Shown here in pieces: positions 5,859 to 42,345 of a DNA stretch of 64,000 nt (positions are counted from its first letter, which is position 1; each line of letters begins with the position of its first letter). Source of the DNA: a virus; the IMG/VR virus record IMGVR_UViG_3300020202_000061, positions 250,950 to 314,949 of that record; one strand, given 5' to 3'. Position numbers and translations under genes: made by a program. Under the pieces are notes generated by a model. It saw nothing but the letters and a program-made list of their open reading frames with translations. It did no database searches and was not told where the DNA came from.

Positions 5859-8752
5859 TGTACATCGATGCCGCACAAATCCAAAAGGATGGGAATCGTA
5901 TCTATGTGAGTGAGAGGGGCAAGGATGGTCAAAGGATCATCAAGTCCCAGATGCCTCCATATGTGCTCTACTATACCGACCCGGATGGCAATTTCACCAG
6001 TATCTACGGGGACAAGCTAAAGCGCGTCCACAATACCTCACGCCGTGCCCACGAGAACGATCTCCAATACTACAGGGATCGCGGGTGCAACATTTTCGAA
6101 TCCGACGTGAAGCCGGTCTTCCGTGTGTTGGAGGAGAAATACGGGCATCTTGATGATTTGCCCAGTTTGAATGTGGGCATCATCGATATCGAGGCCGACA
6201 AGGACCCGAAGAAGGGCTTCACCCGCGTGCGTGATCCCTACGCGATCATCAACGCGTTGACCATCTATAAGAAGCACCTGGACACCTACATCACTCTGAT
6301 TGTGCCACCACCGAATCTCACGGTCGCACAGACCGAATCGATTCTGGCCAATACCGGACATCAAGCAGAGGATGGTAGCTACGTCGAGGGGCCGGGCCGA
6401 GATGAGTTCTCCGATCTCACTGAGGAACATGGATACTTCGTCTGTGAGGATGAGGCCGATCTTCTTCTGACGTTTCTGGAACTGATCGAGGATATCGACG
6501 TGCTGACCGGTTGGAACAGCACGTTCTTCGATATTCCCTATCTGATCCAGCGCATGCGTATCGTGTTGGGCGGAGAATCCATCAACAAACTCGCGATGGA
6601 AGACGGCACGGATCAGCATCCGTATGATCCAACGTCGGAGAGTGTCACCCACATTCAGAGAATGAACCTGTTTCCGACCGTTCCCAAACAGCGCCATGTG
6701 GAACGTTTCGGCACGTTCGAGACCGTCTACGATCTGTGTGGTCGCGTCCATCTGGACTATCTGGAACTCTACCAGAAGTTCCCCCATGAGGAGCTTCACT
6801 CCTATACCCTGGACTTCGTTCTGAAGCATGAGGTCAAGCAGTCCAAGGTTGTCTACGAGGGGAGCCTCGACCAGCTATACCGTCTGAACATTCGTAGATT
6901 CGCCGCCTATAACCGTCAGGATGTTGCCGGGTTGAAGGCGTTGGACGCGAAGAAGAAATACATCGATCTGGCCAACGTCATGGCGCACATGGCCAGTGTG
7001 ACTCTGCGCGAAGTTCTGGGTTCGGTGGTGATCATCGAACAGGCCATCTTGAAGCGTCTGCACAAGGACAAGCTGATCTGTTTCGACAAGATGGAGAAGC
7101 AACACGACCTCCCAATTCCAGGTGCGTTCGTGGTCAACCCAGAGAAGGGTGATTATCGCTGCGTAGCCTCATACGACTTCAACTCGCTGTATCCGACGAC
7201 GATTCGTCTTGTCAATATCAGTCCGGAACAGATCATTGGTCAGTTCGATCTGAACCGTACCATCACGAAGTGGCGCAAACACTTTGTGGATTACGGTGGG
7301 GACACCGGCCGCAAGGATGCCGGAACCAAGGCATGGTCGCATTTCACCGGAGTGCTCGAATACCATGACGTGATCGATGAGACCGAGGAACAACTCACCC
7401 TGGTCTTCGAAGGCACTGGTGAAGAGATCACTCTGACCGGGAAGGAATGGAAAGAGGTCCTCAAGGAGAACAACTGGTCGATCAGCGGATTCGGCACGGT
7501 CTTCGATCTATCCCGAGAGGGTATCGTCACCAAGTGCATGACTGAGTGGTATGCGGACCGCGTGAAGCTCCAGGATCAGAAGAAGAAATACGGCAAGGCC
7601 CAGGAGGGTGTAAACGATCCGGATAGACTGAAGGAGTTGAAGGAGCTTGAAGCCTATTACGACATGCTCCAGCAGGCGAAGAAGCTGTTCCTGAACTCCA
7701 CTTACGGAGCCTACCTGAACTCGTATTTCCGCTTCAATGATCCCCGCTTGGGTGCGTCGGTCACGCTGAGTGGTCGTGTCATGACCAAGCACATGGTGAA
7801 GCAGACCTCCTATGTGATGACCGGGGTCTACGATTTTGATCGCCGCGCCATCATCTATGGTGACACTGACTCCTGCTACGCTACCATGCACTGGTATATG
7901 CAGCAGAATGGTATCGAGATCACCGACCGCAACATGGTGAAGCTCGCGGACGAACTGGGTGAGAAGATCAACGCCAGTATGCCTCCGTTCCTGGAAGGCG
8001 CGTTCCTGATCGACCAGAAGCGTGGTGAGATACTCGAAGCCGGTCGAGAGATCGTCGGTCGCCGTGGTCTGTTTAAGGACAAGAAGAAACGCTACGCTCT
8101 GCACATCATCGACAAGGAAGGCAAAACGGTGGACGATCTCAAGATCGTCGGTATGGAAACGCGCCGCTCAGACACTCCCAAGCATATCCAGGAGTTTCTC
8201 ATCCAGTGCCTTACCCAGACCATCAAGGAGAACAAATCTTATGCGGAGATTCGCCAGATCGTGGATGAATTCCGTGCAGGATTCCGCAAACTTGATCCCT
8301 GGCGCATCGGTTCGCCCGGCCGCGTCAAGAAGCTGGCCACCGCCACGAAGAAACACAACGTCTACAACAGTCGCACCGAGGATGGTGTGGTCGGGCTGGC
8401 CAAGCCAAACTCGCATTTCTACGTGAAGGCGGCACTCAACACGAATACCTTGATGACCCACTACAACGAGACCCGTTGGGACGTGATCCGTGACGGCGAT
8501 AAGGTCGAGGTTCTTTACCTTAGTCCGAACGAATTCGATATGGACGTGGTTGGCATCCGCACGGGTGAAACCTATGTCCCGGAGTGGTTCAAAACCCTCC
8601 CGGTGGACCGCGCCCGAATGGAGCAGAAATTGATCGATCAGAAACTCCACAACGTTCTTGGGGATGTTCTGGAGTGGGATTTTACCCCACAAACAAACTA
8701 TGCATCTGAAGTATTTGAGGAAAACACGGATTTCTACTCCATGGCGGGTTGA
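5858..8752 (+). CDS. family B DNA polymerase
   Basis: exo motif IIDIEADKD; motif B KLFLNSTYGAY (Kx3NSxYG); motif C IIYGDTDS; 964 aa. Confidence 0.9.
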   Translation: MYIDAAQIQKDGNRIYVSERGKDGQRIIKSQMPPYVLYYTDPDGNFTSIYGDKLKRVHNTSRRAHENDLQYYRDRGCNIFESDVKPVFRVLEEKYGHLDDLPSLNVGIIDIEADKDPKKGFTRVRDPYAIINALTIYKKHLDTYITLIVPPPNLTVAQTESILANTGHQAEDGSYVEGPGRDEFSDLTEEHGYFVCEDEADLLLTFLELIEDIDVLTGWNSTFFDIPYLIQRMRIVLGGESINKLAMEDGTDQHPYDPTSESVTHIQRMNLFPTVPKQRHVERFGTFETVYDLCGRVHLDYLELYQKFPHEELHSYTLDFVLKHEVKQSKVVYEGSLDQLYRLNIRRFAAYNRQDVAGLKALDAKKKYIDLANVMAHMASVTLREVLGSVVIIEQAILKRLHKDKLICFDKMEKQHDLPIPGAFVVNPEKGDYRCVASYDFNSLYPTTIRLVNISPEQIIGQFDLNRTITKWRKHFVDYGGDTGRKDAGTKAWSHFTGVLEYHDVIDETEEQLTLVFEGTGEEITLTGKEWKEVLKENNWSISGFGTVFDLSREGIVTKCMTEWYADRVKLQDQKKKYGKAQEGVNDPDRLKELKELEAYYDMLQQAKKLFLNSTYGAYLNSYFRFNDPRLGASVTLSGRVMTKHMVKQTSYVMTGVYDFDRRAIIYGDTDSCYATMHWYMQQNGIEITDRNMVKLADELGEKINASMPPFLEGAFLIDQKRGEILEAGREIVGRRGLFKDKKKRYALHIIDKEGKTVDDLKIVGMETRRSDTPKHIQEFLIQCLTQTIKENKSYAEIRQIVDEFRAGFRKLDPWRIGSPGRVKKLATATKKHNVYNSRTEDGVVGLAKPNSHFYVKAALNTNTLMTHYNETRWDVIRDGDKVEVLYLSPNEFDMDVVGIRTGETYVPEWFKTLPVDRARMEQKLIDQKLHNVLGDVLEWDFTPQTNYASEVFEENTDFYSMAG

Positions 8753-8777
8753 CAATCCTGGGGTTTTCCCCTAAGTG
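8749..8777 (+). promoter_or_regulatory. sigma70-like promoter with GGGGTTTTCCCC dyad spacer
   Basis: TTGACA 8749-8754; 17-nt spacer atcctggggttttcccc; TAAGTG. Confidence 0.45.
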
Positions 8778-8793
8778 AAGTCTGGGGGTTTAG

Positions 8794-9579
8794 GTGAACT
8801 ATCTGTTTTCGTCCATCACAGAGTTTCTGGAGAAGATCGCTCCATTCACGAAATCGATCTCTCACGTCCATCTGGCTAAGATGAAGGATGGTCGTGGAGT
8901 CTTGGCCGCTCCCAGTAGGGATCGTTCGGTCGAGGTTCAAGCCATCACCAAACAACCACTGGAAGACCTCCAGGGAGTGGCGTGTCTGGGCAATCTCCTC
9001 TATTTGAGGCAAATCCTGAAATCCTCCTTTATCAGGGATTCCGAGATCACCCTCTCCTACAGGGATGCCAAGGACAATCGACCGGCCTCGGTCAATACCG
9101 TACAGTTCTCGGTTCCCAAGAAGTCCGCGATCCTCTATCAGGCGACGGACCCATTCATGGGGAATCTGGTGATGCCGGTCAAACAGAAGATCACGGAATG
9201 GCCGGTCAGTTTCATCCTGGAGGGGAAGGCGTTCGAAGAGATAACCGAGATGAGCCAGATTCAGGCTGCGAGTTCGGTCACGGGTGAAATTCTCTTCGAG
9301 TTGATCGCGGACAAATCCGGAGTGATGACAGCGATGTTCGGCAAACGTAACCAATCCAGTCTGGTCCTGACCGATCAGGTGGATCGTGACGATCCGAAGT
9401 CAGGATTCTCGGCGAAATTCATTACGGACCATTTCATCCGCCTCGGTGGGATGACCAATTGGAAGGTCCACAAGGACGGGATGGTGTTCCAGTTCTGTGA
9501 TAAGGCGGTGAAATCCATCTTTGAGACACCAAACCTGGAATACGAAATTATCCTGACTGCAAAGAAGGCGGCCGAATAA
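8794..9579 (+). CDS. hypothetical protein (position after polB suggests a clamp, unproven)
   Basis: ORF 261 aa immediately downstream of polB; GTG start; no motif. Confidence 0.5.
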   Translation: MNYLFSSITEFLEKIAPFTKSISHVHLAKMKDGRGVLAAPSRDRSVEVQAITKQPLEDLQGVACLGNLLYLRQILKSSFIRDSEITLSYRDAKDNRPASVNTVQFSVPKKSAILYQATDPFMGNLVMPVKQKITEWPVSFILEGKAFEEITEMSQIQAASSVTGEILFELIADKSGVMTAMFGKRNQSSLVLTDQVDRDDPKSGFSAKFITDHFIRLGGMTNWKVHKDGMVFQFCDKAVKSIFETPNLEYEIILTAKKAAE

Positions 9580-11292: not shown

Positions 11293-11370
11293 ACGCTATA
11301 TACTAAGAGGCACCGAGGGTTTCAGATGCCTCTATGGGGATTCCAAATCAACAACGGGGTCGAACAACGA

Positions 11371-13305
11371 ATGTCTAATCTCTTCGCGGATTTCAAGACA
11401 ACTTTCGAAAAAACCAGGAAAACCGAACTCTCTCTCCAGGAATACTTGGACCTGTGCAAACAGGATCGAATGGCTTACGCCTGGGCGGTGGAGAGAATGC
11501 TGGCGGCTATCGGCGAGCCCAAGCTAGTTGACACGTCCGAGGACCCGCGCCATTCCAGAATCTTCCTGAACCGCACCATCAAGGTGTATGACGTGTTCAA
11601 GGATTTCTACGGGATGGAGGCGACCATCGAAAAGATCGTCGCCTTCTTCATGAAGGCCGCTCAAGGTCTGGAAGAGAAGAAGCAGGTTCTCTATCTGATG
11701 GGGCCGGTTGGATCGGCTAAGTCCTCTCTGGCAGAGCGTCTCAAGGCTCTGATGGAGAAGATGCCGATCTACGTGCTCAAGGCGGGTGATCAAATCAGCC
11801 CGGTGTTCGAGAATCCCTTGGGTCTGTTCGATCCGAACGTGTGGAGTGATCGCCTCCAAGAGGAATACGGGATTCCTCGTCGTTATCTGACCGGGTTGAT
11901 GTCGCCTTGGGCGGTAAAGCGCCTGAACGAGGACTTCGACGGGGATATCAGCAAGTTCAGTGTGGTGAAGCTCTACCCGAGCAAGCTCAAGCAGATAGCG
12001 ATCTCCAAGGTCGAACCCGGTGACGAGAACAACCAAGACATTTCGTCTCTGGTCGGTAAGGTTGATATCCGCAAGCTGGCGGAGTTCTCCGCTCGTGATA
12101 CCGATGCCTACAGCTACTCCGGTGGTCTCTGCTTGGCCAACCAGGGCGTGCTGGAGTTCGTCGAGATGTTCAAGGCACCGATCAAGATGCTGCATCCGAT
12201 GCTCACCGCGACCCAGGAGGGCAACTACAACGGCACCGAGGCGATCTCTGGTATTCCGTTCCAGGGTGTGATTCTGGCCCACTCCAACGAATCCGAATGG
12301 GAGTCGTTCAAGAGCAACAAGAACAACGAGGCATTCCTCGACCGCATCAGCATCATCAAGGTCCCTTACTGCCTGCGTGTCACGGACGAGACCAAAATTT
12401 ACCAGAAGCTCTTGCGTGATTCGTCCCTGGACAAGGCTCCATGCACACCCAAGACGCTGGAATTGCTCTCCCAAATGAGCGTGCTTTCCCGTCTGATCTA
12501 TCCGGAGAACTCTTCGATCCATTCGAAGATGAAGGTCTACGATGGTGAGAACATCAAGGAAACCGATCCCTACGCCAAATCTGTTCAGGAATATCGTGAA
12601 CTGGCCGGGGTCAACGAGGGTATGACCGGTCTCAGCACCCGCTGGGCTTTCAAGGTGCTGTCATCGGTGTTCAATTATGATCCGAACGAGATCGGCGCGA
12701 ATCCGGTCCATCTGTTCCGTATCTTGGAGGACAAGATCACTGAGGAACAATTCCCGAAGGAAGTCGAAGAGGACCTTCGTGAACACCTCCAGTGGATCAA
12801 GGCCAAGTACATCGATTTCATCGGCAATGAAATCCAGGTTGCCTACCTGGAGTCCTACACCGAATACGGCCAGAACATGTTCGACCGCTACATCGTCTAT
12901 GCGGATCATTGGATCGAGGATCGGGACTATCGTGATTCCGAGACCGGCGAGATGTACAACCGCGAAACCCTGAATAAGGAACTCGAAAAGATCGAGAAGC
13001 CCTCCGGTATCGCGAATCCCAAGGAATTCCGTAACGAGGTGGTCAACTACTCTCTCCGTTACAAGGCCAACCACGGCAAGTATCCGAGGTGGAACTCCTA
13101 CGAGAAGCTCAAGGAAATCATCGAGAAGAAGATGTTCGCGAACATCTCTGATCTCCTGCCGGTGATCTCGTTCGAGAAGAAATCCTCCGAGGAGCACGAG
13201 AAGAAGCACAAGGATTTTGTGCAGCGCATGAAAGAGAAGGGATACAGCGAGCGCCAGACCCGTATCGTCGTGGACTGGTTCATGAAGGTACAGAAGTCCA
13301 ACTGA
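11371..13305 (+). CDS. prkA: PrkA/YeaG-family serine protein kinase
   Basis: N-terminus LQEYLDLCKQDRMAYAWAVERMLAAIGEP and P-loop YLMGPVGSAKSSLAERLK parallel E. coli YeaG; alternative start 11326. Confidence 0.85.
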   Translation: MSNLFADFKTTFEKTRKTELSLQEYLDLCKQDRMAYAWAVERMLAAIGEPKLVDTSEDPRHSRIFLNRTIKVYDVFKDFYGMEATIEKIVAFFMKAAQGLEEKKQVLYLMGPVGSAKSSLAERLKALMEKMPIYVLKAGDQISPVFENPLGLFDPNVWSDRLQEEYGIPRRYLTGLMSPWAVKRLNEDFDGDISKFSVVKLYPSKLKQIAISKVEPGDENNQDISSLVGKVDIRKLAEFSARDTDAYSYSGGLCLANQGVLEFVEMFKAPIKMLHPMLTATQEGNYNGTEAISGIPFQGVILAHSNESEWESFKSNKNNEAFLDRISIIKVPYCLRVTDETKIYQKLLRDSSLDKAPCTPKTLELLSQMSVLSRLIYPENSSIHSKMKVYDGENIKETDPYAKSVQEYRELAGVNEGMTGLSTRWAFKVLSSVFNYDPNEIGANPVHLFRILEDKITEEQFPKEVEEDLREHLQWIKAKYIDFIGNEIQVAYLESYTEYGQNMFDRYIVYADHWIEDRDYRDSETGEMYNRETLNKELEKIEKPSGIANPKEFRNEVVNYSLRYKANHGKYPRWNSYEKLKEIIEKKMFANISDLLPVISFEKKSSEEHEKKHKDFVQRMKEKGYSERQTRIVVDWFMKVQKSN

Positions 13306-13316
13306 GGGCTATCATA

Positions 13317-14606
13317 GTGACCACGGTCATTGACAGACGTAAGACCGACCGCCAGAAGAACCTCTCCAATAGGCAGAGGTTCATCAAAAGAGCCAAGGAA
13401 GCGATCAAGAAGTCGATCCGTGGAGCCATCCTCAATAAGGATCGCTCGATCAAAGACTCATCCGGCGGTAATGTTCGAATCCCCAACAAAGGGACGACAG
13501 AGCCGAATTTCCGCAATGGAGACGGTGGTCGTAAGATCATCGTTCGTCCGGGTAATCCAGGCACTGTGCCGGGTGACAAGATTCCACGTCCCAGAAAGGA
13601 TCAGACTTCGGGCCGTGGTAACAGTGATCCATCCAAAGACCCCGCTGAGTTGATGGATGAGTTCGAGTTCACGCTGACCCGTGAGGAATTTCTGGACTTC
13701 TTCTTTGAGGACCTGGAATTGCCCAACTTGGTCAAGACCGCCCTCAAAGAGGTGGTCGAGTACAAATGGTCCCGTTCGGGATTTGCCTCGGTCGGTATGC
13801 CGTCGAATCTCGACATTACCCGAACCTTCATCAATTCGATGGGTCGCCATTTCGCTCTGGCCGGAGCCTACCAGAAAAAGATCGACGAACTTCGCGCTAA
13901 TGGTGGATCGGAAGAGGATATCGCGCTCTGGGAGAAGAGGAAGCGGACCATCCCGTTCATGGATGACGTGGACCTGCGCTATCGCCTGTTTGTGAAGCAG
14001 CCCAAGCCGATCACCAAAGCGGTAATGTTCTGTCTGATGGACGTATCTGGCAGTATGGGCGAGTACGAGAAGGACTTGGCCAAGCGTTTCTTCATGCTCC
14101 TCTACATGTTTCTGGAGCGCAAATACGAGTCGGTCACCGTGGTGTTCATCCGTCATACCACCGAAGCCAAAGAGGTGGACGAGCAGGAGTTCTTCTACTC
14201 GAAAGAATCAGGTGGAACCGTGGTCAGCACGGCTCTGGAAATGACTGCTGATCTGATTCAGCGGCGCTTCAACAGTTCAGACTACAACATCTACGTGAGC
14301 CAGTGTTCGGACGGCGACAATGCCTACGATGACAACTCCGTGTGCACCCAGATCATCCGTGAGGATATTCTGCCTTATGTCCAGTATTTTGCGTATGTCC
14401 AGGTCGGACATCAGCGCGATGAGATGGCCAACATGTGGGGTGTGTTTGCGGGTCGTCTTGGGAACACCACGAGCACGAATTCCCTCTACGAGGTTTATAA
14501 GGAGATCGAGAAGAATACCTCCCATTTCAAGGTGAAGAACCTGAATGGTCCTGCCGACATCTACCCGGTGTTTCGCGAACTCTTTGAGAAGGACATCAAG
14601 GTATGA
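13317..14606 (+). CDS. yeaH: YeaH/YhbH family protein (DUF444, UPF0229)
   Basis: VIDRRKTDRQKNLSNRQRF…EFLDFFFEDLELPNL…VMFCLMDVSGSM…FFYSKESGGTVVS…DIYPVFRELF colinear with E. coli YeaH. Confidence 0.85.
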   Translation: MTTVIDRRKTDRQKNLSNRQRFIKRAKEAIKKSIRGAILNKDRSIKDSSGGNVRIPNKGTTEPNFRNGDGGRKIIVRPGNPGTVPGDKIPRPRKDQTSGRGNSDPSKDPAELMDEFEFTLTREEFLDFFFEDLELPNLVKTALKEVVEYKWSRSGFASVGMPSNLDITRTFINSMGRHFALAGAYQKKIDELRANGGSEEDIALWEKRKRTIPFMDDVDLRYRLFVKQPKPITKAVMFCLMDVSGSMGEYEKDLAKRFFMLLYMFLERKYESVTVVFIRHTTEAKEVDEQEFFYSKESGGTVVSTALEMTADLIQRRFNSSDYNIYVSQCSDGDNAYDDNSVCTQIIREDILPYVQYFAYVQVGHQRDEMANMWGVFAGRLGNTTSTNSLYEVYKEIEKNTSHFKVKNLNGPADIYPVFRELFEKDIKV

Positions 14607-16093
14607 GCCTGCTCTGGAATGATAATGAATGGACTTTCCCGCTCATCGACAAGGTCTACAAGGAGATCGAGCAGATCGGCGTGGGTGAGATGGGTCTGGA
14701 CATCTTCCCGAATCAGATCGAGGTCATCAGCAGTGATCAGATGCTGGACGCTTATGCAAGCCATGCCATGCCAGTCATGTATAAGCACTGGTCCTTTGGC
14801 AAGTCGTATTCGGTCAACAAGAAACTCTATGAGAACGGTCAGCAGGGTCTGGCCTACGAGGTCGTAATCAACTCGAATCCCTGCATTGCCTATCTCATGG
14901 AGGACAACACCATGACCATGCAGGCTTTGGTCATGGCCCATGCCAGCATCGGTCACAACAACTTCTTCAAGACTAACTACCTGTTCCAGCAGTGGACCGA
15001 TCCGGATGGGATCATCGACTACCTGATCTTCGCCAAGAATTATGTGGCGAAGTGTGAGGAGCGATACGGTGCCGAACGAGTCGAGGAAGTTCTCGATTCC
15101 TGTCACGCTCTCATGGACCAGGGTATGGACCGCTTTAAGCGAGCCCGCAAACGTTCCCGTCAGGAGGAGAAGCTCCGTGCGGCCGAACGTGAAGCCTATC
15201 ACCAAAGTCGTGTGAGTGAGCTTTGGCCGGACACCTGGAAGTCCGAGACCCCGGCCCAGAAGGAAGAACGCAAGAAGCGGATTCTTCCGGAGCCCGAGGA
15301 CAACATCCTCTACTTCATCGAGAAGAACTCGCCGATCCTGGAGCCGTGGGAACGAGAGATCGTTCGTATCGTCCGTAAGGTATCGCAGTATTTCTGGCCT
15401 CAGATGCAGACCCAGGTCGGTAATGAGGGCTGGGCCACCCATACCCATTACTTCATTATGAATCGTCTCTACGAGAAGGGTCTGATCTCGGACGGTTCTC
15501 TGTTGGAGTTCTTCAAGTCCCACACGGGCGTTATCGCGCAGTATCGCATGCAGCGTCTGAACCCGTACTGCCTGGGATTCAACATTTTCCGCGACATCAA
15601 GCGTATGTGCGAGAAACCCACCGATGAGGATCGTGAATGGTTCCCCGATCTGGTCGGGATGAACTGGCTGGAAGCCGCGAAGGACGCGCGTGAGAACTAC
15701 AAGGATGAGAGCCTGATCCTCCAGTACCTCAGCCCCAAGGTGATCCGCGATCTTAAGCTTTTCTCGATCCTGGATGATTACGGCACGGACTCGATGAACT
15801 ATATCGTCCAGAACATCCACGACCGGGAAGGCTACAAGGAAGTTCGTCGATCCCTCTCTCGCAACTACGACATCAACATGAGAATTCCACAGATTCAGGT
15901 GTCGGATGTCAATGTGGATGGGGATCGCAAACTGATCCTTCGCCATACCCGTCACAACTATGTGCCGCTGGATCAGGCCGATCTCAAGGAAACTCTCCTC
16001 CATGTGAGGCGTCTCTGGGGGTTTGCGGTGCGTCTGGACTTCTACAATCCCGGCGCGGTCAGTCCCACGGATTGGGTAGCGGTGGGTGAATAA
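14603..16093 (+). CDS. spoVR: SpoVR/YcgB family protein
   Basis: 496 aa; conserved SpoVR stretches (MYKHWSFGKSY, GHNNFFK, GWATHTHY). Confidence 0.85.
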   Translation: MSLLWNDNEWTFPLIDKVYKEIEQIGVGEMGLDIFPNQIEVISSDQMLDAYASHAMPVMYKHWSFGKSYSVNKKLYENGQQGLAYEVVINSNPCIAYLMEDNTMTMQALVMAHASIGHNNFFKTNYLFQQWTDPDGIIDYLIFAKNYVAKCEERYGAERVEEVLDSCHALMDQGMDRFKRARKRSRQEEKLRAAEREAYHQSRVSELWPDTWKSETPAQKEERKKRILPEPEDNILYFIEKNSPILEPWEREIVRIVRKVSQYFWPQMQTQVGNEGWATHTHYFIMNRLYEKGLISDGSLLEFFKSHTGVIAQYRMQRLNPYCLGFNIFRDIKRMCEKPTDEDREWFPDLVGMNWLEAAKDARENYKDESLILQYLSPKVIRDLKLFSILDDYGTDSMNYIVQNIHDREGYKEVRRSLSRNYDINMRIPQIQVSDVNVDGDRKLILRHTRHNYVPLDQADLKETLLHVRRLWGFAVRLDFYNPGAVSPTDWVAVGE

Positions 16094-24998: not shown

Positions 24999-25084
24999 GC
25001 CAGGATGGCTGAGTGGCCGAAAGCAGAGCCTTTGTAACGCTCCGGGGAAACCCCACGCAGGTTCGAATCCTGTTCCTGGCTCCA
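24999..25084 (+). tRNA. class II (Ser-type scaffold) tRNA with anticodon TGT; paralog of the 20278 gene
   Basis: 86 nt; acceptor gccagga/tcctggc; D-arm tggctgagtggccgaaagc; anticodon stem gagc(c)/(c)gctc with loop ttTGTaa; long variable arm; T-arm gcaggttcgaatcctgt; CCA. Confidence 0.7.
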
Positions 25085-27771: not shown

Positions 27772-27939
27772 ATGGATATCAACGATATTGGTCGTCGCGT
27801 TCGTTCAACCGCGATAAATGACCGCTACGGGGAAGTCGTTTCGATCTCACATCGTGGCCACGTCTATAAGGTCCAATACGAGGATCAACCCACCAATTCT
27901 CCCATCGCTCAAGAAGAGCACGAATTCGAATTCGTCTAA
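27772..27939 (+). CDS. hypothetical small protein (55 aa)
   Basis: ATG 27772 with strong RBS aagggggaaat. Confidence 0.45.
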   Translation: MDINDIGRRVRSTAINDRYGEVVSISHRGHVYKVQYEDQPTNSPIAQEEHEFEFV

Positions 27940-27955
27940 ACCCAGGGAGAATCCA

Positions 27956-28903
27956 TTGTATATCGATAATCGCGTTCGCGATCCCGAGATCAGCTTTGCC
28001 TTGAACATCAACGGGGAACCCCAGACCGTCCTTACCCTGGGTGTGGACCAGGGTAAGTTCCACGTGGAAATCCCCGAAGGGGTCGAGGCCACTGAGGCGG
28101 CCAAGAATTTCCTAACCGTGCTGACGGAGATTTATCCGGCGTGGCAGACAGAGCGTCAGCCCAAGGTCAAGACCACGGACTTTCACGATCCTTGGTATGT
28201 GGGGAACGACAGTGGAATGCCTGCGAGTGCATTCTTCCTGGACGCTGAGGACACAGTGAAGGTGATTCACCAACCGGTGAAGATTAGTGACCTTCCCAGT
28301 TTGCCCAAGGGTAATGAACTGTTCTACGTGCATTATAATCCAAATACGGATACCCTCTCCAAGGTTCCCACAAAGAGCCGTGAAGTTGATTTTGCTCCAG
28401 AAGAAATCAGCGATCCGGAGCAATCCCCGATTTGGTTTAATTCAACCCTGTTTGACACCACTAATTTTCAGGCGTCGGATCGAGGGGCTCAACAAACCAA
28501 AATGCTGGAGGACGCCGTCAAGGTCTATGCTCTTCATCGTCCGGCCACACTCGAACAACAAGCCGATATCGAATATTTCACGAATATCGATATCAAGCTG
28601 GAATATGGCAACGCCATCTTCGGCAAGGAATCGGTTCGTTTACCCAGCATGGACGAAGACGGAGGCGAACTCTTCTCGGATGGTGCAAAAATTGGCACCT
28701 GGGAAAAGATAACACCGGATTTCGAGTTGGAAATTCAACCGATCACTCCGGTCGTGCGCTCGGTGGAGAAACCCGTGATGACCTCTGGCCATTACATGCG
28801 ACCGGAGAGCGCCAAGCGCCTAGATAGTATCATGAGCCGTTATGAGGCGGCCAACCCCAAGCCCGAGGTCACCATGACCTCCGGCACATACGAGAAGGAA
28901 TAA
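27956..28903 (+). CDS. hypothetical protein
   Basis: in-frame TTG 27956 after gggagaatcc within ORF 27818..28903; start uncertain. Confidence 0.5.
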   Translation: MYIDNRVRDPEISFALNINGEPQTVLTLGVDQGKFHVEIPEGVEATEAAKNFLTVLTEIYPAWQTERQPKVKTTDFHDPWYVGNDSGMPASAFFLDAEDTVKVIHQPVKISDLPSLPKGNELFYVHYNPNTDTLSKVPTKSREVDFAPEEISDPEQSPIWFNSTLFDTTNFQASDRGAQQTKMLEDAVKVYALHRPATLEQQADIEYFTNIDIKLEYGNAIFGKESVRLPSMDEDGGELFSDGAKIGTWEKITPDFELEIQPITPVVRSVEKPVMTSGHYMRPESAKRLDSIMSRYEAANPKPEVTMTSGTYEKE

Positions 28904-28909
28904 ATCCCA

Positions 28910-29599
28910 ATGTGGGCAATTGAAATCATGAAGGCCGATCAGGGCCTGGATCGTTGGATCGCTATGGTCGAGGATTCTGGTGTGGCAAACCGCGCCAACC
29001 TGTATATCTTGAAGAATCCGTTCGCGTTCGAAACCCGACTCGAAGCCATGCTGGCGAGCGCCGTGATATACGGATCGGACAATGCTATTCTGGGCGAGGA
29101 CATGCACCTGGAACTGGTCTCGCTGATTGACGAAGCCGAGTTGCCGCCGGAATTCGATGAGGACGAACTCGGCCTCAGTGACGCGGTTCTGCATGACCTC
29201 GACGAGGATACCATCAGTTATACCGAGTGGTGCCAGGAACACGGCATCACCATGGCCCAGGGCCGCACGCCGGTCACGACCAACCTGACCCCGATTGTGG
29301 AACTCGCGAAGTCCACCGCTGAGGTCCTGGAAGGAATCGCGAATACCCTGGAATCAATGCGCCTGACCGTGGCCGAGATGAAAGCGAACGAACTCAAGAA
29401 ATTGTTCGTCACAGATACCGGTTCAATGACTCCGGAGCGTGCACGTGATGTTGTGAGTGTGTTCGCGGCCGAAGGACTGACTGTCACGGATACCAAGAAG
29501 GCTCAGGAGTTCCTGAATCAGGCTCGATCCAACGGAGGTTTTCTGGACCCGGTCGAGTCGCCCTCCGACACTCCATTCATGTCGAGCGGAACCTATTAG
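28910..29599 (+). CDS. hypothetical acidic protein
   Basis: ORF 229 aa. Confidence 0.55.
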   Translation: MWAIEIMKADQGLDRWIAMVEDSGVANRANLYILKNPFAFETRLEAMLASAVIYGSDNAILGEDMHLELVSLIDEAELPPEFDEDELGLSDAVLHDLDEDTISYTEWCQEHGITMAQGRTPVTTNLTPIVELAKSTAEVLEGIANTLESMRLTVAEMKANELKKLFVTDTGSMTPERARDVVSVFAAEGLTVTDTKKAQEFLNQARSNGGFLDPVESPSDTPFMSSGTY

Positions 29600-29610
29600 T
29601 CGGAAACTTC

Positions 29611-29639
29611 TTGACACCCGAGGGGTATTCACCTAAATA
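29611..29639 (+). promoter_or_regulatory. sigma70-like promoter driving the tRNA-Ser cluster
   Basis: TTGACA 29611-29616; spacer cccgaggggtattcacc; TAAATA. Confidence 0.65.
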
Positions 29640-29649
29640 CCCCTCACTC

Positions 29650-29737
29650 GGAGAGTAAACCCCTGAGGTTGGGGTGCCGCCTGGAAAGCGGTCAGGACCT
29701 GAAAGGGTCTACGGTTCGAGTCCGTTGCTCTCCTCCA
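29650..29737 (+). tRNA. tRNA-Ser (GGA), class II
   Basis: acceptor ggagagt/gctctcc; anticodon stem gccgc/gcggt with loop ctGGAaa; long variable arm; T-arm acggttcgagtccgt; CCA. Confidence 0.8.
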
Positions 29738-29745
29738 AGCCTTTT

Positions 29746-29836
29746 GGAAGATTGGCAGAGTCTGGTAATGCGCCCGCCTCGAAAGCGGTGGCCTACCTCA
29801 TGGGTAGCGGGGGTTCAACTCCCTCATCTTCCGCCA
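29746..29836 (+). tRNA. tRNA-Ser (CGA), class II
   Basis: acceptor ggaagat/atcttcc; D-arm tggcagagtctggtaatgc; anticodon loop ctCGAaa; long variable arm (ctacc/gggtag stem); T-arm gggggttcaactccc; CCA. Confidence 0.8.
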
Positions 29837-29930
29837 GCATGGCCGTTCCTGGAACCCTTGAAGTTCCGATTGGTGGCCGTCAAACCGCTCGGGAGCGGGC
29901 TGAATCTGAAAAGGACCAGCGAACACCCAT

Positions 29931-30022
29931 GGAGGGTTGACAGAAAGGCTATTGTGCCGGTCTTGAAAACCGTGGCTGACCTCAGAAGGGTCATGGGAGT
30001 TCGAATCTCTCACCCTCCGCCA
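29931..30022 (+). tRNA. tRNA-Ser (TGA), class II
   Basis: acceptor ggagggt/accctcc; anticodon loop ctTGAaa; long variable arm; T-arm gggagttcgaatctctc; CCA. Confidence 0.8.
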
Positions 30023-30023
30023 A

Positions 30024-30428
30024 ATGGATCAATTCTCTATCGGCTGGCTCGCTGGAATTATTGACGGTGAAGGCACTGTCACAATTGACAAAGAATCCAA
30101 TCGTTATCGCCGACCAGTCATAAGCGTATCATCTACAGACATCGAGATTTTGAACCGTATTCAGGGAATGATCGGTGGCAGTATAACTGTGAAAAATCGT
30201 GAACGAGCGCCACATCACAAACTAGCATATATGTGGAAGATGCATGGTTCTCAAAAAGTGATTGAGGTTTTGAAAATCATTGCTCCGCATATGAGTTGTC
30301 CGAAGAAAAAGAATCGAGCAAATTTCATCCTTGAGAATTACCGAACGCTAACACCTCGTAATGGAAAATATACCGAACAAATGAGAATAGATCGTCTCCA
30401 ATTTGAAGAACAGTTTTTTCATGTCTGA
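30024..30428 (+). CDS. LAGLIDADG homing endonuclease (single-motif)
   Basis: LAGIIDGEG motif at residues 9-17; ATG only 1 nt after the CCA of tRNA-Ser(TGA); AT-rich codon usage unlike its flanks. Confidence 0.8.
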   Translation: MDQFSIGWLAGIIDGEGTVTIDKESNRYRRPVISVSSTDIEILNRIQGMIGGSITVKNRERAPHHKLAYMWKMHGSQKVIEVLKIIAPHMSCPKKKNRANFILENYRTLTPRNGKYTEQMRIDRLQFEEQFFHV

Positions 30429-30789
30429 GTTAGGAGATCAGATAATTGCTGGCATCATTAGTGGTGTGATTACCGTTATTATATTAGGTCTTTCGAATTA
30501 TCTATTTGCCACGAAGATTCATATCTACGATTGGTTATATCCATTCCCACTCGAATTCCAATTACTACAATCAATGACGTGGGATAAAATGACTCTTCCG
30601 GCCGGGCAAATCATTCGCCTTCGTCTTACTGCATGGGAATTACGCTCGATACCTCCTGATGAATGGATTGACTTTTTACTATGGGACCCATATCTAAACC
30701 AATACAACCATCATCCTGATCTACGACATCCGGCAACATATTTCAAAACGGGATCGTTGATGAAAAGGATTGATTGGAGATTTTGTTAA
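30403..30789 (+). CDS. hypothetical membrane-anchored protein
   Basis: ORF 128 aa; TM IIAGIISGVITVIILGLSNYLF; AT-rich. Confidence 0.45.
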   Translation: MKNSFFMSELGDQIIAGIISGVITVIILGLSNYLFATKIHIYDWLYPFPLEFQLLQSMTWDKMTLPAGQIIRLRLTAWELRSIPPDEWIDFLLWDPYLNQYNHHPDLRHPATYFKTGSLMKRIDWRFC

Positions 30790-30890
30790 TGCCAATCATC
30801 GTTGAAACTATAATCATCGGAATCATCGTGTTTGTGATCGGTTCGCTCATTCTGAGTGGAATCCAAGCCCTGTTCAAGAAAAAGCAATGA
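30789..30890 (+). CDS. small membrane peptide (33 aa)
   Basis: TAATG-coupled ATG 30789; MPIIVETIIIGIIVFVIGSLILSG. Confidence 0.3.
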   Translation: MPIIVETIIIGIIVFVIGSLILSGIQALFKKKQ

Positions 30891-31060
30891 CCTCGGTGAT
30901 CCTCTTCCTGGGTCTGATCGGGATCATTTACTCGGCCGCGACTCTCATCGACCAACCCTATCGCACGTGGTGGGGGAATCTCGTTCTGTTTGGTGTGCTC
31001 ATGGGATCGCTCTGTGCGATTATCTACGGGATTTCTGGTTCGCAAAATATTCCGCATTGA
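30887..31060 (+). CDS. small membrane protein (57 aa)
   Basis: ATGA-coupled ATG 30887; two hydrophobic segments. Confidence 0.3.
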   Translation: MTSVILFLGLIGIIYSAATLIDQPYRTWWGNLVLFGVLMGSLCAIIYGISGSQNIPH

Positions 31061-31063
31061 TCA

Positions 31064-31092
31064 TTGACACCGGGTAACCCTGGGATTACATT
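31064..31092 (+). promoter_or_regulatory. sigma70-like promoter with GGGTAACCC dyad spacer
   Basis: TTGACA 31064-31069; spacer ccgggtaaccctgggat; TACATT. Confidence 0.5.
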
Positions 31093-31124
31093 TGAGACCG
31101 TAGTGTAATCCGTGGGGGAATCTA

Positions 31125-32900
31125 ATGGGTGGTTTGCTATTTCTGGCATTTGGGCTCGTTGCCCTTCTTTTGATCGGAGCATTCGCTCCGAATTTCATTC
31201 ACAAAATCCTTACCAGCAAAGAATCGGAGCCGAGCAAGCTCCTGGTTCAGGCTCCGCGTGTCATCGCGTGGGGTGTGATGGTGGTGTGGGTTCTCAGTCT
31301 CTCGTTCGTGCACGTACCGATTGGTCAAGTCGGTATGTTGAACCTGATCTGGGGTGCCGAGCGTGAGCAGGGCGCGATCCTCGCTCGTAGTGGAAGTCAG
31401 CGTGGTCCGCAGACCGATCTTCTCGGACCCGGAACCAAATTCATCCCGTTCGTGCACGTGCTGTATGACGTGGAGACGGCCGATCAGTTCGTGGTGCCGG
31501 ATGGCTTCTACGGCCTATTGACGGCCAAGGATGGCGCTCCGATGCCAGCGGGTCAGTATGTGGCTCCGGCCTGGAAGGAAGGCACAGAGAGCGAAATGCT
31601 CGACGCCGCCACGTTCCTCACCAAGGGCGGGATCAAGGGTCCGCAACTCTACGTGCTGACGCCGGGTATCTACCCGCTGAACACCTACCTGTGGGACGCT
31701 CGCACCGAGGCTGCTTCCGATACCAATTCCGGAACAAGGGCCACAATCATCCCGGCTGGTTCCGTGGGTGTGGTGAAGTCGAACGTGACCGATCCCGGTA
31801 TCGTCTGCAAGCAGGTCGAGGAAAAGGTGGACACAACCGTGGCCCACGATTCGAACGCGCTCTCCGCGCTACTCGTTCCGAAGGGTTGCACCGGTATCTG
31901 GAATGAAGTGCTGACGCCGGGTGCGTATTACCTGAACCGTCTCGCCTATCAGGTGACCATCGTCGATACGCGTGTTCAAACTCTCCAGTACGCTGGTGGT
32001 TACGACTCGCGCAAGATCGAACTGAATGTCGGCCTGGACGGCAAGATCGAGCAAGCCGAGTCCGCGTCCAAGATCAGCACGCCCGAAGGTGCAGCGGATT
32101 CCGCGATCAACGTGAAGGTTGGTTCCTGGGTGGTTCATCAGGACCTCAGGATGGTGATCCAGGTCAGTCCGGAAAACGCCCCCATCGTGGTGGGTGCGGT
32201 CGGTGGACTCAAGCAGATCGAGGATTCCATCGTGACCCCGGCGGTGCAGTCGGTCGTGCGTGACGTGATGGGCGGCCTGCTGTTGTTCCCGAGCGAAACC
32301 GTCGCACGTCAGGTTGAGATCAACGATCTGATCGTGAACCGCGAATTCATCCAGAGCGTGATCGAGGATCGTATCCGCGCCGAGGGGGCCAAGGCGGGTT
32401 TGTCCGTGCGTGAGGTTCGTCTGGCCAATCCGGACATTCCGCCCGAAATGCTTCTCGGCAACAAGCGTGAGCAGCTTGCCCAGCAGATGAAGCAGGCGTT
32501 CGAGCAGGAAGAAGTTACGCAGACCCAGCGTATCAAGGTGGAGCAGGCCAAGGCCACTGCCGATCAGCAGGAATCCCTGGTGACCGCGCAGATCGGCGTG
32601 GAAGTCTCCAAGCTGACCATCAACAAGCGCACCAACGAGGGTCAGGCCGAACAGGCTTACCTGGAAGCGCTCGCTGCGGGTCAGAAGGCCCAGGCTTTGG
32701 TCCTGGGCGAAGAGAACGTGCTGATCCTGAATATGGTCGATAAGGTCCTGGCTAGTCTCGGAAAGAACCCGGAAATCCTGGGCTCGATCAAGCTGCCCTC
32801 GACCATGGTCATGGGAGGCGGTTCGTTTGAGGGGGTGGCGGCAATCGTGAAGGACGCGCTCGGGGGAGCGCCTCGTTCCGAAGCGAAGCTGCCACAGTAA
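31125..32900 (+). CDS. SPFH (band 7) / flotillin-like membrane protein
   Basis: N-terminal TM; SPFH-like core; C-terminal coiled coil with flotillin-like EA-rich repeats (QAKATADQQESLVTAQIGVEVSKL…QAEQAYLEALAAGQKAQALVLG). Confidence 0.6.
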   Translation: MGGLLFLAFGLVALLLIGAFAPNFIHKILTSKESEPSKLLVQAPRVIAWGVMVVWVLSLSFVHVPIGQVGMLNLIWGAEREQGAILARSGSQRGPQTDLLGPGTKFIPFVHVLYDVETADQFVVPDGFYGLLTAKDGAPMPAGQYVAPAWKEGTESEMLDAATFLTKGGIKGPQLYVLTPGIYPLNTYLWDARTEAASDTNSGTRATIIPAGSVGVVKSNVTDPGIVCKQVEEKVDTTVAHDSNALSALLVPKGCTGIWNEVLTPGAYYLNRLAYQVTIVDTRVQTLQYAGGYDSRKIELNVGLDGKIEQAESASKISTPEGAADSAINVKVGSWVVHQDLRMVIQVSPENAPIVVGAVGGLKQIEDSIVTPAVQSVVRDVMGGLLLFPSETVARQVEINDLIVNREFIQSVIEDRIRAEGAKAGLSVREVRLANPDIPPEMLLGNKREQLAQQMKQAFEQEEVTQTQRIKVEQAKATADQQESLVTAQIGVEVSKLTINKRTNEGQAEQAYLEALAAGQKAQALVLGEENVLILNMVDKVLASLGKNPEILGSIKLPSTMVMGGGSFEGVAAIVKDALGGAPRSEAKLPQ

Positions 32901-32955
32901 GGGGGAGAGCCAGGGCGGACTGGGGGAGTCCGCTCTGGTTCCTTTAGAGGGAAAC

Positions 32956-33210
32956 ATGTTGAAATCCAGCCGTATTCGAATCTCATACGAGACCACCAAG
33001 GGCTATTCCGGTCGTTGGTCGCTGGATTCCAAGAATATTCGTGCAGACATTTCCGAGCCCGGTGTTGAGGCCGCACTCCAGGCTCTGGTCGAAATCACCA
33101 GGATTTTGTCCGTCGCAGGTCGAGGCACAGAGGCCGTGTCCAAGGTTAATCAAACCCATATCGAAACCAGCAACATCATTGCTTCCTATCGAAAGGCAAC
33201 ATCATCATGA
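32956..33210 (+). CDS. hypothetical protein
   Basis: ORF 84 aa. Confidence 0.4.
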   Translation: MLKSSRIRISYETTKGYSGRWSLDSKNIRADISEPGVEAALQALVEITRILSVAGRGTEAVSKVNQTHIETSNIIASYRKATSS

Positions 33211-41039: not shown

Positions 41040-41114
41040 GGGCCGGTAGCTCAGAGGCAGAGCAGCATCCTCTTAAGTTGACGGTCGTGGGTTCGATTCC
41101 CACCCGGCCCTCCA
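41040..41114 (+). tRNA. tRNA-Lys (CTT)-like
   Basis: perfect acceptor gggccgg/ccggccc; D-arm tagctcagaggcagagc; T-arm gtgggttcgattcccac; CCA; anticodon loop ctCTTaa but anticodon stem only 3 of 5 bp (gcatc/gttga). Confidence 0.6.
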
Positions 41115-41119
41115 AATTC

Positions 41120-41195
41120 GCCAGATTACAGTTTAGTGGTAGAACACGCGGCCGATAACCGTGGAGCGGGGGTTCGATTCCCTCATCTGGCACCA
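41120..41195 (+). tRNA. tRNA with anticodon GAT (Ile-type) and atypical features
   Basis: 76 nt; acceptor gccagat/atctggc; CCA; anticodon stem cgcgg/ccgtg with loop ccGATaa (C33); 2-nt insertion before D-stem gttt/gaac. Confidence 0.6.
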
Positions 41196-41942: not shown

Positions 41943-42020
41943 GTCCTCGTAGCTCAATTGGATCAGAGCGTTACTTTCCGAAGGTAGAGGTTGTGGGTTC
42001 GAGCCCCGCCGAGGACGCCA
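41943..42020 (+). tRNA. tRNA-Arg (CCG)
   Basis: acceptor gtcctcg/cgaggac; D-arm tagctcaattggatcagagc; anticodon stem ttact/ggtag with loop ttCCGaa; T-arm gtgggttcgagccccgc; CCA. Confidence 0.8.
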
Positions 42021-42021
42021 A

Positions 42022-42345
42022 ATGATCAAGTTGATTCTCACCTGCGGCGCATGCCCCGAACAGTATGACGCATTCCTGGGCGAAGAGCGCGTAGGTTACC
42101 TCCGTCTGCGCCATGGCCGTTTCTACGTGGAATGCCCGGACTCGGGCGGTCTGCGCGTGTATGAGGCCACACCCAAGGGCGATGGCCTCTTCGACTCGGA
42201 CGAGCGCGACTATTATCTGGCCCACGCCGTGGCCGCCATCGAGGGCTGGATTGCCAGCGGCAAACCGACCCAGATCGGACAGCCCCCGCGCCCGAACGTG
42301 CAGTATGAGATCGTGGGTGTTGCTGAGGAATGGGGCATCTATTGA
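42022..42345 (+). CDS. hypothetical protein
   Basis: ATG 2 nt after the tRNA CCA; 107 aa. Confidence 0.5.
   Translation: MIKLILTCGACPEQYDAFLGEERVGYLRLRHGRFYVECPDSGGLRVYEATPKGDGLFDSDERDYYLAHAVAAIEGWIASGKPTQIGQPPRPNVQYEIVGVAEEWGIY

Follow-up and report, generated by a model that had tools for sequence, protein, structure and literature searches.

Endonucleases of the I-CreI type contain one motif or domain per chain and act as homodimers on a pseudo-palindromic site of ~22 bp. The genes for I-CreI, I-MsoI and I-CvuI reside in group I introns within organellar rRNA genes. Here, a predicted free-standing gene for a LAGLIDADG endonuclease of this kind was analyzed in a phage tRNA operon, where it lies directly 3' of a tRNA-Ser(tga) gene in 64,000 nt of the virus record IMGVR_UViG_3300020202_000061 (positions 250,950-314,949). 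This whole stretch is referred to as the window, and coordinates are window positions unless another contig is named. The window enzyme resembles I-CreI, I-MsoI and I-CvuI in length (~135-165 aa for all four) and in having one motif with an acidic residue at motif position 8, a conserved lysine (K95 in the window enzyme) and the same core, but sequence identity to the three enzymes is only ~15-19%, and the family of the window enzyme has an invariant C-terminal motif of its own, TPRNGKY, unlike these enzymes.

The same genomic niche is occupied by SegB of phage T4, which is encoded among tRNA genes, is absent from close relatives, has a site that includes a conserved motif of the T-psi-C stem-loop, and drives inheritance of itself and of the surrounding tRNA genes (PMC2330249). 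Homologues of segB were reported to be statistically associated with tRNA genes (PMC13096335). The window enzyme is predicted to behave in the same way, but it is not a member of the SegB group: SegB belongs to the GIY-YIG enzymes, whose fold and cleavage chemistry are unrelated, whereas the window enzyme is LAGLIDADG by Pfam, PHROG and fold. LAGLIDADG genes have also been reported in introns of transfer-messenger RNA (tmRNA) genes (PMC11915505). The tmRNA-associated LAGLIDADG genes belong to the same family as the window enzyme (26-46% identity, with the invariant residues shared), and tmRNA genes, with their group I introns or permuted intervening segment, are the commonest viral context of this family; in the window the neighbour is a tRNA-Ser gene instead. 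The locus also resembles the 'HEG islands' (HEG, homing endonuclease gene; Barth et al., 2023; PMC10448857), in which an endonuclease gene and passenger DNA are found at a break in synteny and identity with mosaic flanks. Compared to these islands, the one in the window is minimal, with a single orphan passenger, and the mosaic units are individual tRNA genes.

The tRNA-Ser(tga) locus with and without the endonuclease gene

The window probably contains a free-standing, I-CreI-like homing endonuclease cassette, which includes an orphan and putatively membrane-anchored open reading frame (ORF), orf122, and which was inserted at the junction of tRNA-Ser(tga) and the small gene orf33; its cleavage activity and target are predicted from sequence comparison. 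Two relatives were found by means of the SPFH/Band-7 protein encoded downstream of the locus: L004, a 409-kb contig (84% protein identity), and L005, a 46-kb contig (81%). By blastn both were syntenic with the window over ~20 kb at 70-85% nucleotide identity. Both alignments end at position 30026, and the alignment restarts at 30788, the start of the orf33 gene, for L004 and at 30886 for L005. In both relatives, tRNA-Ser(tga) ends with ...TTCCGCCA, followed by A and then by ATGCC(T/C)..., which is the start of the orf33 homologue; the empty-site sequence includes ...GGGAGTTCGAATCTCTCTCCTTCCGCCAAATGCCTATTATCGTCGAAACC... In the window, the left junction is formed by CCGCCAAATG followed by GATC..., and the right junction by ...TTGTTAATG followed by CCAATCATCGTTGAAAC. 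Comparison of these junctions with the empty sites gives an insert of 765 bp (30024-30788), with borders that are ambiguous by 4 nt since AATG is present at both junctions (30023-30026 and 30788-30791). The insert contains the endonuclease gene and orf122 and nothing more.

The endonuclease gene is thus polymorphic at one precise site, being present in the window and absent in L004 and L005. A preliminary description, made from the window's letters, had pointed to relatives carrying the same block at the same GC content as evidence against a discrete insertion; both relatives were found to be without the block. Resident orf33 already began 1 nt after the tRNA, and the insert took the position of its start codon and not an empty spacer.

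The window was contained in a 401,308-bp phage contig (L088; 100% identical), and two short contigs from other samples (L002 and L003) were also 100% identical to it. The endonuclease-carrying allele is identical in these four assemblies, and exact-protein look-ups returned only copies of the same genome (L002, L003 and L088), with no presence/absence variation within the population. Megablast of 27800-33000 against GenBank phages gave no match, and hence no cultured close relative; in viral and metagenome contigs, no relatives were found by a search with the SPFH protein, and an exact search with the conserved tRNA 3' segment returned nothing.

The AT-richness of the insert was far beyond chance and its composition is foreign. 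The GC content of the window is 54.6%; the 1-kb bin 30001-31000 has 42.4%, and all other 1-kb bins have 50-61%. For 30024-30788 the GC content is 40.0% (z = -4.5 among 765-nt windows with a standard deviation of 3.2%; z = -4.95 among non-overlapping windows), the lowest of any 765-nt stretch in the 64 kb, the next-lowest being 47.2%. GC at third codon positions (GC3) is 0.36 both in the endonuclease gene and in orf122, compared to 0.56 in orf33, 0.66 in orf57 (52% GC overall) and 0.62-0.73 in the flanking large genes. The preliminary description had reported a strongly AT-rich kilobase that codes for three small membrane proteins. The AT-rich region is real (bin at 42.4% GC), but the island, in composition as in insertion, stops at ~30788 and not at 31060, and of the three proteins only that of orf122 belongs to it, since orf33 and orf57 are resident in the endonuclease-less relatives.

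The two resident genes were detected in both relatives, orf33 at L004 9460-9567 and L005 9458-9565 (76-81% nucleotide identity, most changes being synonymous or conservative) and orf57 at L004 9761-9934 and L005 9765-9938 (78-85%). Between them, L004 (9564-9764) and L005 (9568-9768) contain a gene of 66 aa that is missing in the window (30886-30890); the gene module has ATGA start/stop overlaps at its borders.

The start of orf122 overlaps the stop of the endonuclease gene by 8 nt, and its TAA overlaps the ATG of orf33 (TAATG). The chance of 122 stop-free codons at the composition of the island is ~3e-4, so orf122 is probably a real gene. It showed no Pfam or PHROG family, a word-indexed search of 5.8 billion proteins returned only orf122 itself, and HMMER against 1.84 billion representatives gave only matches to CUB-repeat proteins. 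Homology to these eukaryote-like proteins, which have 13-31 CUB domains, was distrusted, since the matches were short and inflated by the repeats. A single-sequence AlphaFold2 model was confident for the N-terminal helix 3-39 alone; that orf122 encodes a membrane-anchored cargo protein is a guess.

The endonuclease

The ATG of the endonuclease gene is located 1 nt past the CCA end of tRNA-Ser(tga), as the preliminary description had noted: the sequence reads ...CCGCCA(30022) A ATG(30024), with CCA at 30020-30022, a at 30023 and ATG at 30024-30026. No in-frame start lies further upstream in this ORF, and homologues have N-termini of equal length, both of which mark the ATG 1 nt past the tRNA as the true start. 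The 134-aa protein begins with MDQFSIGWLAGIIDGEG and contains the one LAGLIDADG motif recognized before, L9-A-G-I-I-D-G-E-G17 (LAGIIDGEG). Its scores exceeded the curated Pfam thresholds for PF00961 (LAGLIDADG_1; 25.8 bits, cut-off 23.1) and PF14528 (LAGLIDADG_3; 24.1 bits, cut-off 22.5), and it matched phrog_5046 with E = 7e-24.

An AlphaFold2 model based on an alignment of 69 homologues had a predicted local distance difference test score (pLDDT) of 94.9 and showed an alpha-beta-beta-alpha-beta-beta-alpha core (helices 3-16, 40-50 and 76-89; strands 17-23, 29-37, 53-58 and 68-74). The best Protein Data Bank matches by Foldseek were I-CreI, I-MsoI and I-CvuI (probability 1.0, TM-score ~0.75), and all 50 of the top 50 matches were LAGLIDADG enzymes. 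The family profile also found I-MsoI and I-CreI by sequence (E = 1e-3 to 4e-9). By sequence threshold, motif and fold, the window protein thus belongs to the LAGLIDADG superfamily. As a single 134-aa domain whose best structural matches are single-domain enzymes, it is presumably homodimeric and of the I-CreI type. When a palindrome was sought by eye at the empty site, nothing convincing was found beyond the inverted repeat of the T-arm.

The residues that are invariant in the family (A10, G11, D14, G15, E16, G17, G52, K95, R112, N113, G114 and Y116) are all retained, and the gene therefore looks intact. E16, at the C-terminal end of the motif helix, is invariant across the 69 family members; it presumably corresponds to D20 in I-CreI. 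The gene lies between a complete tRNA and orf122/orf33 and has a start and a stop of its own, and no intron was found in 29500-31200; it is therefore classed as free-standing.

tRNA-like 3' ends beside members of the family

A search with the family alignment matched 276 viral loci, of which 80 were retrieved and 31 examined with Rfam; the counts of neighbouring RNAs given here are for loci L008-L036 (n=29). A standard or permuted tmRNA was found within ~170 nt of the homologue or spanning it at 20 of the 29 loci. Two further loci had a group I intron alone adjoining the homologue, tRNA-Thr adjoined it at one locus, and at five nothing was detected; a group I intron adjoins the homologue at L033, L034 and L036. 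Since a phage has at most one tmRNA gene of ~400 nt, the tmRNA association cannot be due to chance. In the literature searched, no description was found of a tmRNA association of free-standing copies. In same-strand cases the gene begins 1 to ~110 nt after a tRNA-like CCA end. At L022, for instance, the acceptor piece of a permuted tmRNA ends in ...CCACCA, with the gene beginning just behind it, and an arrangement of the same kind was found in Sphingobium phage Lacusarx (L006).

Outside the window, a tRNA-Ser context was found at two loci. The closest homologue (44% identity; L001, which is the same locus as L008, on a 169-kb contig of an uncultured phage) is located 12 nt after tRNA-Ser(gct) and 2 nt before tRNA-Ser(tga); a search for endonuclease-less relatives of L001 found only its own contig. 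The other homologue (37.5% identity), from Gordonia phage WilliamBoone, fills the spacer between tRNA-Ser(cga) and tRNA-Ser(gct), and the T-arm of the upstream tRNA-Ser is altered in this phage. When the region was compared by megablast, WilliamBoone alone covered at least 80% of the query among the matching records, and the listed Smoothievirus-type relatives matched the tRNA parts only. Direct reading of two relatives, Culver and Bachita, showed spacers of 80 and 115 nt with unrelated sequence at the position of the endonuclease gene. A clade of tRNA-Ser-associated enzymes is not claimed, bootstrap support for it being weak and only suggestive.

ROOL (350 bits) and GOLLD (328 bits) RNAs and Pistol ribozymes were observed within a few kb of homologues, on contigs with tRNA or tmRNA genes nearby (L017 5461-6056; L036 1788-2202; L013 4357-4424; L019 5121-5189; L020 5118-5186).

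Divergent tRNA alleles in the cluster

Most orthologous tRNAs of the window, L004 and L005 are 84-100% identical. Among the exceptions is the tRNA-Ser(tga) of the window, which lies beside the LAGLIDADG insert and shows 78% identity to its orthologues, these being 100% identical in L004 and L005; the T-arm is identical in all three genomes and the acceptor stem differs by paired changes. The tRNA-Ser(cga) of L004 shows 65% identity to its orthologues and is followed by a different insertion encoding 232 aa (L004 8598-9296), whereas the window allele of this tRNA shows 90% identity to L005 and 65% to L004. For tRNA-Ser(gga), the window allele is 65% identical to that of L004 and L005, which are 100% alike, and no nuclease gene is located beside it. 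This tRNA has a long D-stem (CCCC/GGGG), scores below the Rfam tRNA threshold and reaches 40.5 bits with the tRNA-Sec model, for which the cut-off is 47. Elsewhere, tRNA-Thr(tgt) of L004 shows 55% identity to the other two genomes (window 24999-25084), and tRNA-Lys(ctt) of the window (41040-41114) shows 78% identity to L004 and L005.

Whole-tRNA-allele replacement seems to be common in this phage lineage, and the tRNA-Ser cluster is a hot spot of such mosaicism. The mosaic tRNAs would fit co-conversion or co-transfer with an adjacent nuclease gene, by analogy with SegB (PMC2330249) and with nucleases at exchange boundaries (PMC10448857).

The L004 insert (8540-9366), between tRNA-Ser(cga) and tRNA-Ser(tga), has a GC content of 47% compared to 56% for the locus. 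Several endonuclease families of PHROG were matched weakly by its 232-aa ORF (E = 1e-4 to 2e-3), which also contains a motif resembling PD...E-x-K. It appears that a second nuclease gene entered the tRNA cluster independently of the first. In the window, tRNA-Ser(cga) and tRNA-Ser(tga) are separated by a 94-nt spacer (29837-29930) that shows 96% identity to L005, above that of the neighbouring genes, and holds an ORF of 33 codons with its ATG 2 nt after the tRNA. This spacer was considered as a structured RNA and rejected (fold z = -0.36 compared to shuffled sequences).

Genes that start 1 nt after a tRNA

The arrangement CCA-A-ATG was also found at resident genes. In the relatives it is formed by tRNA-Ser(tga) and orf33 (L004 9458-9462, L005 9456-9460), and in all three genomes a 107-aa phrog_21607 gene begins 1 nt after tRNA-Arg(ccg) (window 41943-42345, L004 19921-20293, L005 20469-20871). 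An ATG at offset 1 follows three of the 17 tRNAs of the window, whereas ~0.27 would be expected by our own estimate (17 x 1/64). This arrangement leaves no room for a Shine-Dalgarno sequence and suggests tRNA-punctuated or leaderless expression. In Escherichia coli, 3' maturation of tRNAs begins with a cut a few nt downstream of the CCA (PMC4681348). Processing of the tRNA could therefore leave an mRNA that is nearly leaderless, or it could eliminate the start codon.

Coordinates and other features of the window

The features of the locus are collected in Table 1. All three tRNA-Ser genes are co-oriented according to ARAGORN, and Rfam confirmed tRNA-Ser(cga) and tRNA-Ser(tga). The promoter-like site upstream of the cluster, which was missed by the promoter scan because of its strict demand for T at position 6 of the second hexamer, is kept in L004 and L005, with a spacer identity of 86%. 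The canonical promoter that the preliminary description had placed after the island was recovered as TTGACA-17-TACATT and is likewise conserved in both relatives.

Table 1. Features of the tRNA-Ser(tga) locus in the window.
Feature	Position	Strand	Evidence or remark
Promoter-like TTGACA-17-TAAATA	29611-29639	+	Upstream of tRNA-Ser cluster; read from sequence
tRNA-Ser(gga), atypical allele	29650-29737	+	ARAGORN
tRNA-Ser(cga)	29746-29836	+	ARAGORN; Rfam tRNA 51.2 bits
tRNA-Ser(tga)	29931-30022	+	ARAGORN; Rfam tRNA 46.9 bits; CCA end is left border of the insertion
Inserted cassette, 765 bp	30024-30788	+	blastn, junction alignment, empty-site sequences, GC
LAGLIDADG endonuclease gene, 134 aa, single motif, free-standing	30024-30428	+	Pfam, PHROG, AlphaFold2, Foldseek
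orf122, orphan passenger ORF with predicted N-terminal transmembrane helix	30421-30789	+	ORF list
orf33, resident gene for 33-aa membrane peptide, outside insert	30789-30890	+	Homologues in L004 and L005
orf57, resident gene for 57-aa two-helix membrane protein, outside insert	30887-31060	+	Conserved in L004 and L005
Promoter-like TTGACA-17-TACATT	31064-31092	+	Scan, 10/12 matches; precedes SPFH/Band-7 gene
SPFH/Band-7 gene	31125-32900		SPFH domain by Pfam

The tRNA finders disagreed at two other places: a tRNA found by Rfam at 41121-41190 (41.4 bits) was missed by ARAGORN, and the second tRNA-Asn of ARAGORN (345-420) was unreported by Rfam at the gathering threshold. Elsewhere in the window (11326-16093), three consecutive large genes encode a PrkA/YeaG-like serine kinase (phrog_22605; 64% identity to 'YeaG' of Enterobacter phage LAU1), a SpoVR-like protein and a phrog_35217 protein. 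This trio resembles the bacterial yeaG-yeaH-ycgB stress module and was also found in huge uncultured phages (LR756502 and others) and in Ralstonia phage RsoM2USA.

Proposed mechanism and alternative explanations

On the reading proposed here, the enzyme would, during co-infection, cut endonuclease-less relatives in or beside the 3' part of tRNA-Ser (T-arm and acceptor) or at the tRNA/orf33 junction, and repair of the break from the carrier genome would copy the cassette and flanking tRNA sequence into the cut genome. Such copying of flanking sequence would account for the divergence of the adjacent tRNA-Ser(tga) allele. The carrier would be immune because its site is split by the insertion or because its acceptor stem differs. 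As the endonuclease ATG sits exactly at the position of the resident ATG, and as the TAATG overlap should couple translation of orf33 to that of orf122, the cassette would make use of the resident expression signals, and translation of orf33 should be unaffected. It appears to be shaped for low cost to the host phage.

Several observations weigh against this reading. We infer its mechanism (cleavage, target site and homing) wholly from sequence. Endonuclease-carrying and endonuclease-less genomes have the same T-arm sequence; with the T-arm as target, only the split junction or the two acceptor-stem changes could confer immunity. There is no Shine-Dalgarno sequence before the endonuclease ATG, which abuts a structured tRNA, and expression may therefore be very low. 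Only a single endonuclease-carrying allele was available, which precludes measurement of purifying selection on the gene. In the family tree (neighbour-joining), bootstrap support was 68% for the window enzyme with L008 and 43% when WilliamBoone was added. Mosaicism is not specific to endonuclease sites, tRNA-Ser(gga) and tRNA-Lys(ctt) of the window being divergent with no adjacent nuclease, and the divergence of tRNA-Ser(tga) peaks in its 5' half, away from the insert, which is not the simplest co-conversion gradient.

Alternatively, the cassette could be a fixed, immobile remnant whose endonuclease is inactive, barely expressed or active in another role, such as the SegB-like amplification or exchange of tRNA genes, and what is seen would then be no more than a past insertion. 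The missing ribosome-binding site, the ATG 1 nt from the tRNA, and a single known allele that is identical in four assemblies would all agree with this, and SegB shows that endonucleases of tRNA clusters can have secondary roles (PMC13096335). We consider a remnant unlikely, though still worth weighing, since the ORF is not truncated, retains all residues that are invariant in the 69-member alignment and is modelled with a pLDDT of 95, and since a GC3 of 0.36, with no drift towards the composition of the genome, suggests recent arrival. Acquisition of the cassette as an ordinary 'moron', by illegitimate recombination at the 4-nt microhomology and with no involvement of the endonuclease, would account for AATG at both junctions and for an orphan as passenger. 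It leaves unexplained why homologues occur immediately 3' of tRNA-Ser and tmRNA ends in unrelated phages, and is improbable. The opposite polarity, an ancestral block that was deleted once or independently in the lineages of L004 and L005, is allowed by a comparison that includes only two relatives, an outgroup for the locus having been searched for and none found, and by a region that is prone to gene gain and loss, as seen from the 66-aa gene. Such a deletion would have to restore exactly the CCA-A-ATG that is also seen at tRNA-Arg(ccg), the GC content and GC3 of the block are strongly foreign, and the same gene family is present or absent at tRNA-Ser spacers of Gordonia phages, with WilliamBoone as the sole carrier among matching records; ancestry of the block is therefore very improbable.

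Location of the endonuclease gene within a group I intron of tRNA or tmRNA, as for some distant members of the family, would have precedents in L033, L034 and L036 and in the LAGLIDADG genes of 23 of 844 tmRNA introns (PMC11915505). At this locus, tRNA-Ser(tga) is complete upstream of the ORF, the flanks in the relatives join a tRNA to a protein gene and not exon to exon, no intron match was found by Rfam in 29500-31200 at E <= 1, and the window contains no tmRNA; an intron-borne gene is thereby effectively refuted. A freestanding homing endonuclease that invaded the tRNA operon, as the preliminary description had proposed, is thus supported by the empty sites, the GC3 of 0.36 and the lack of an intron, with an insert of 765 bp instead of ~1 kb. 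The element is well documented and of a known kind, a fairly ordinary mobile element. Less expected are the CCA-A-ATG starts of genes and the preference for tRNA-like 3' ends that the family as a whole appears to show. A wider and distinctly tentative proposal would be that the window enzyme is one branch of a LAGLIDADG clade specialized on tRNA-like 3' ends (T-arm, acceptor and CCA), mostly those of standard, permuted and intron-containing tmRNA genes, with a switch to tRNA-Ser in the window, L001/L008 and WilliamBoone, and that these enzymes are a counterpart of SegB in shuffling tRNA alleles, combined with a translation that needs no Shine-Dalgarno sequence, is punctuated by tRNAs and is possibly leaderless.

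Implications

The base-exact borders and the two natural empty-site alleles provide a defined substrate for studying target and cleavage. For nuclease engineering, interesting scaffolds may be found among natural I-CreI-type enzymes that have new target sites, and the CCA-A-ATG arrangement poses a testable question on the translation of genes that lie flush against tRNAs. The vicinity of tRNA-like 3' ends appears to be where this compact LAGLIDADG family (~135 aa) homes, and if this is confirmed, the idea derived from SegB, that endonucleases move tRNA genes between phages, would extend to another enzyme superfamily. Which tRNA alleles a phage carries is relevant to its escape from tRNA-cleaving defences (PMC13096335), and for this reason a family homing to tRNA ends would bear on the conflict between phages and their hosts.

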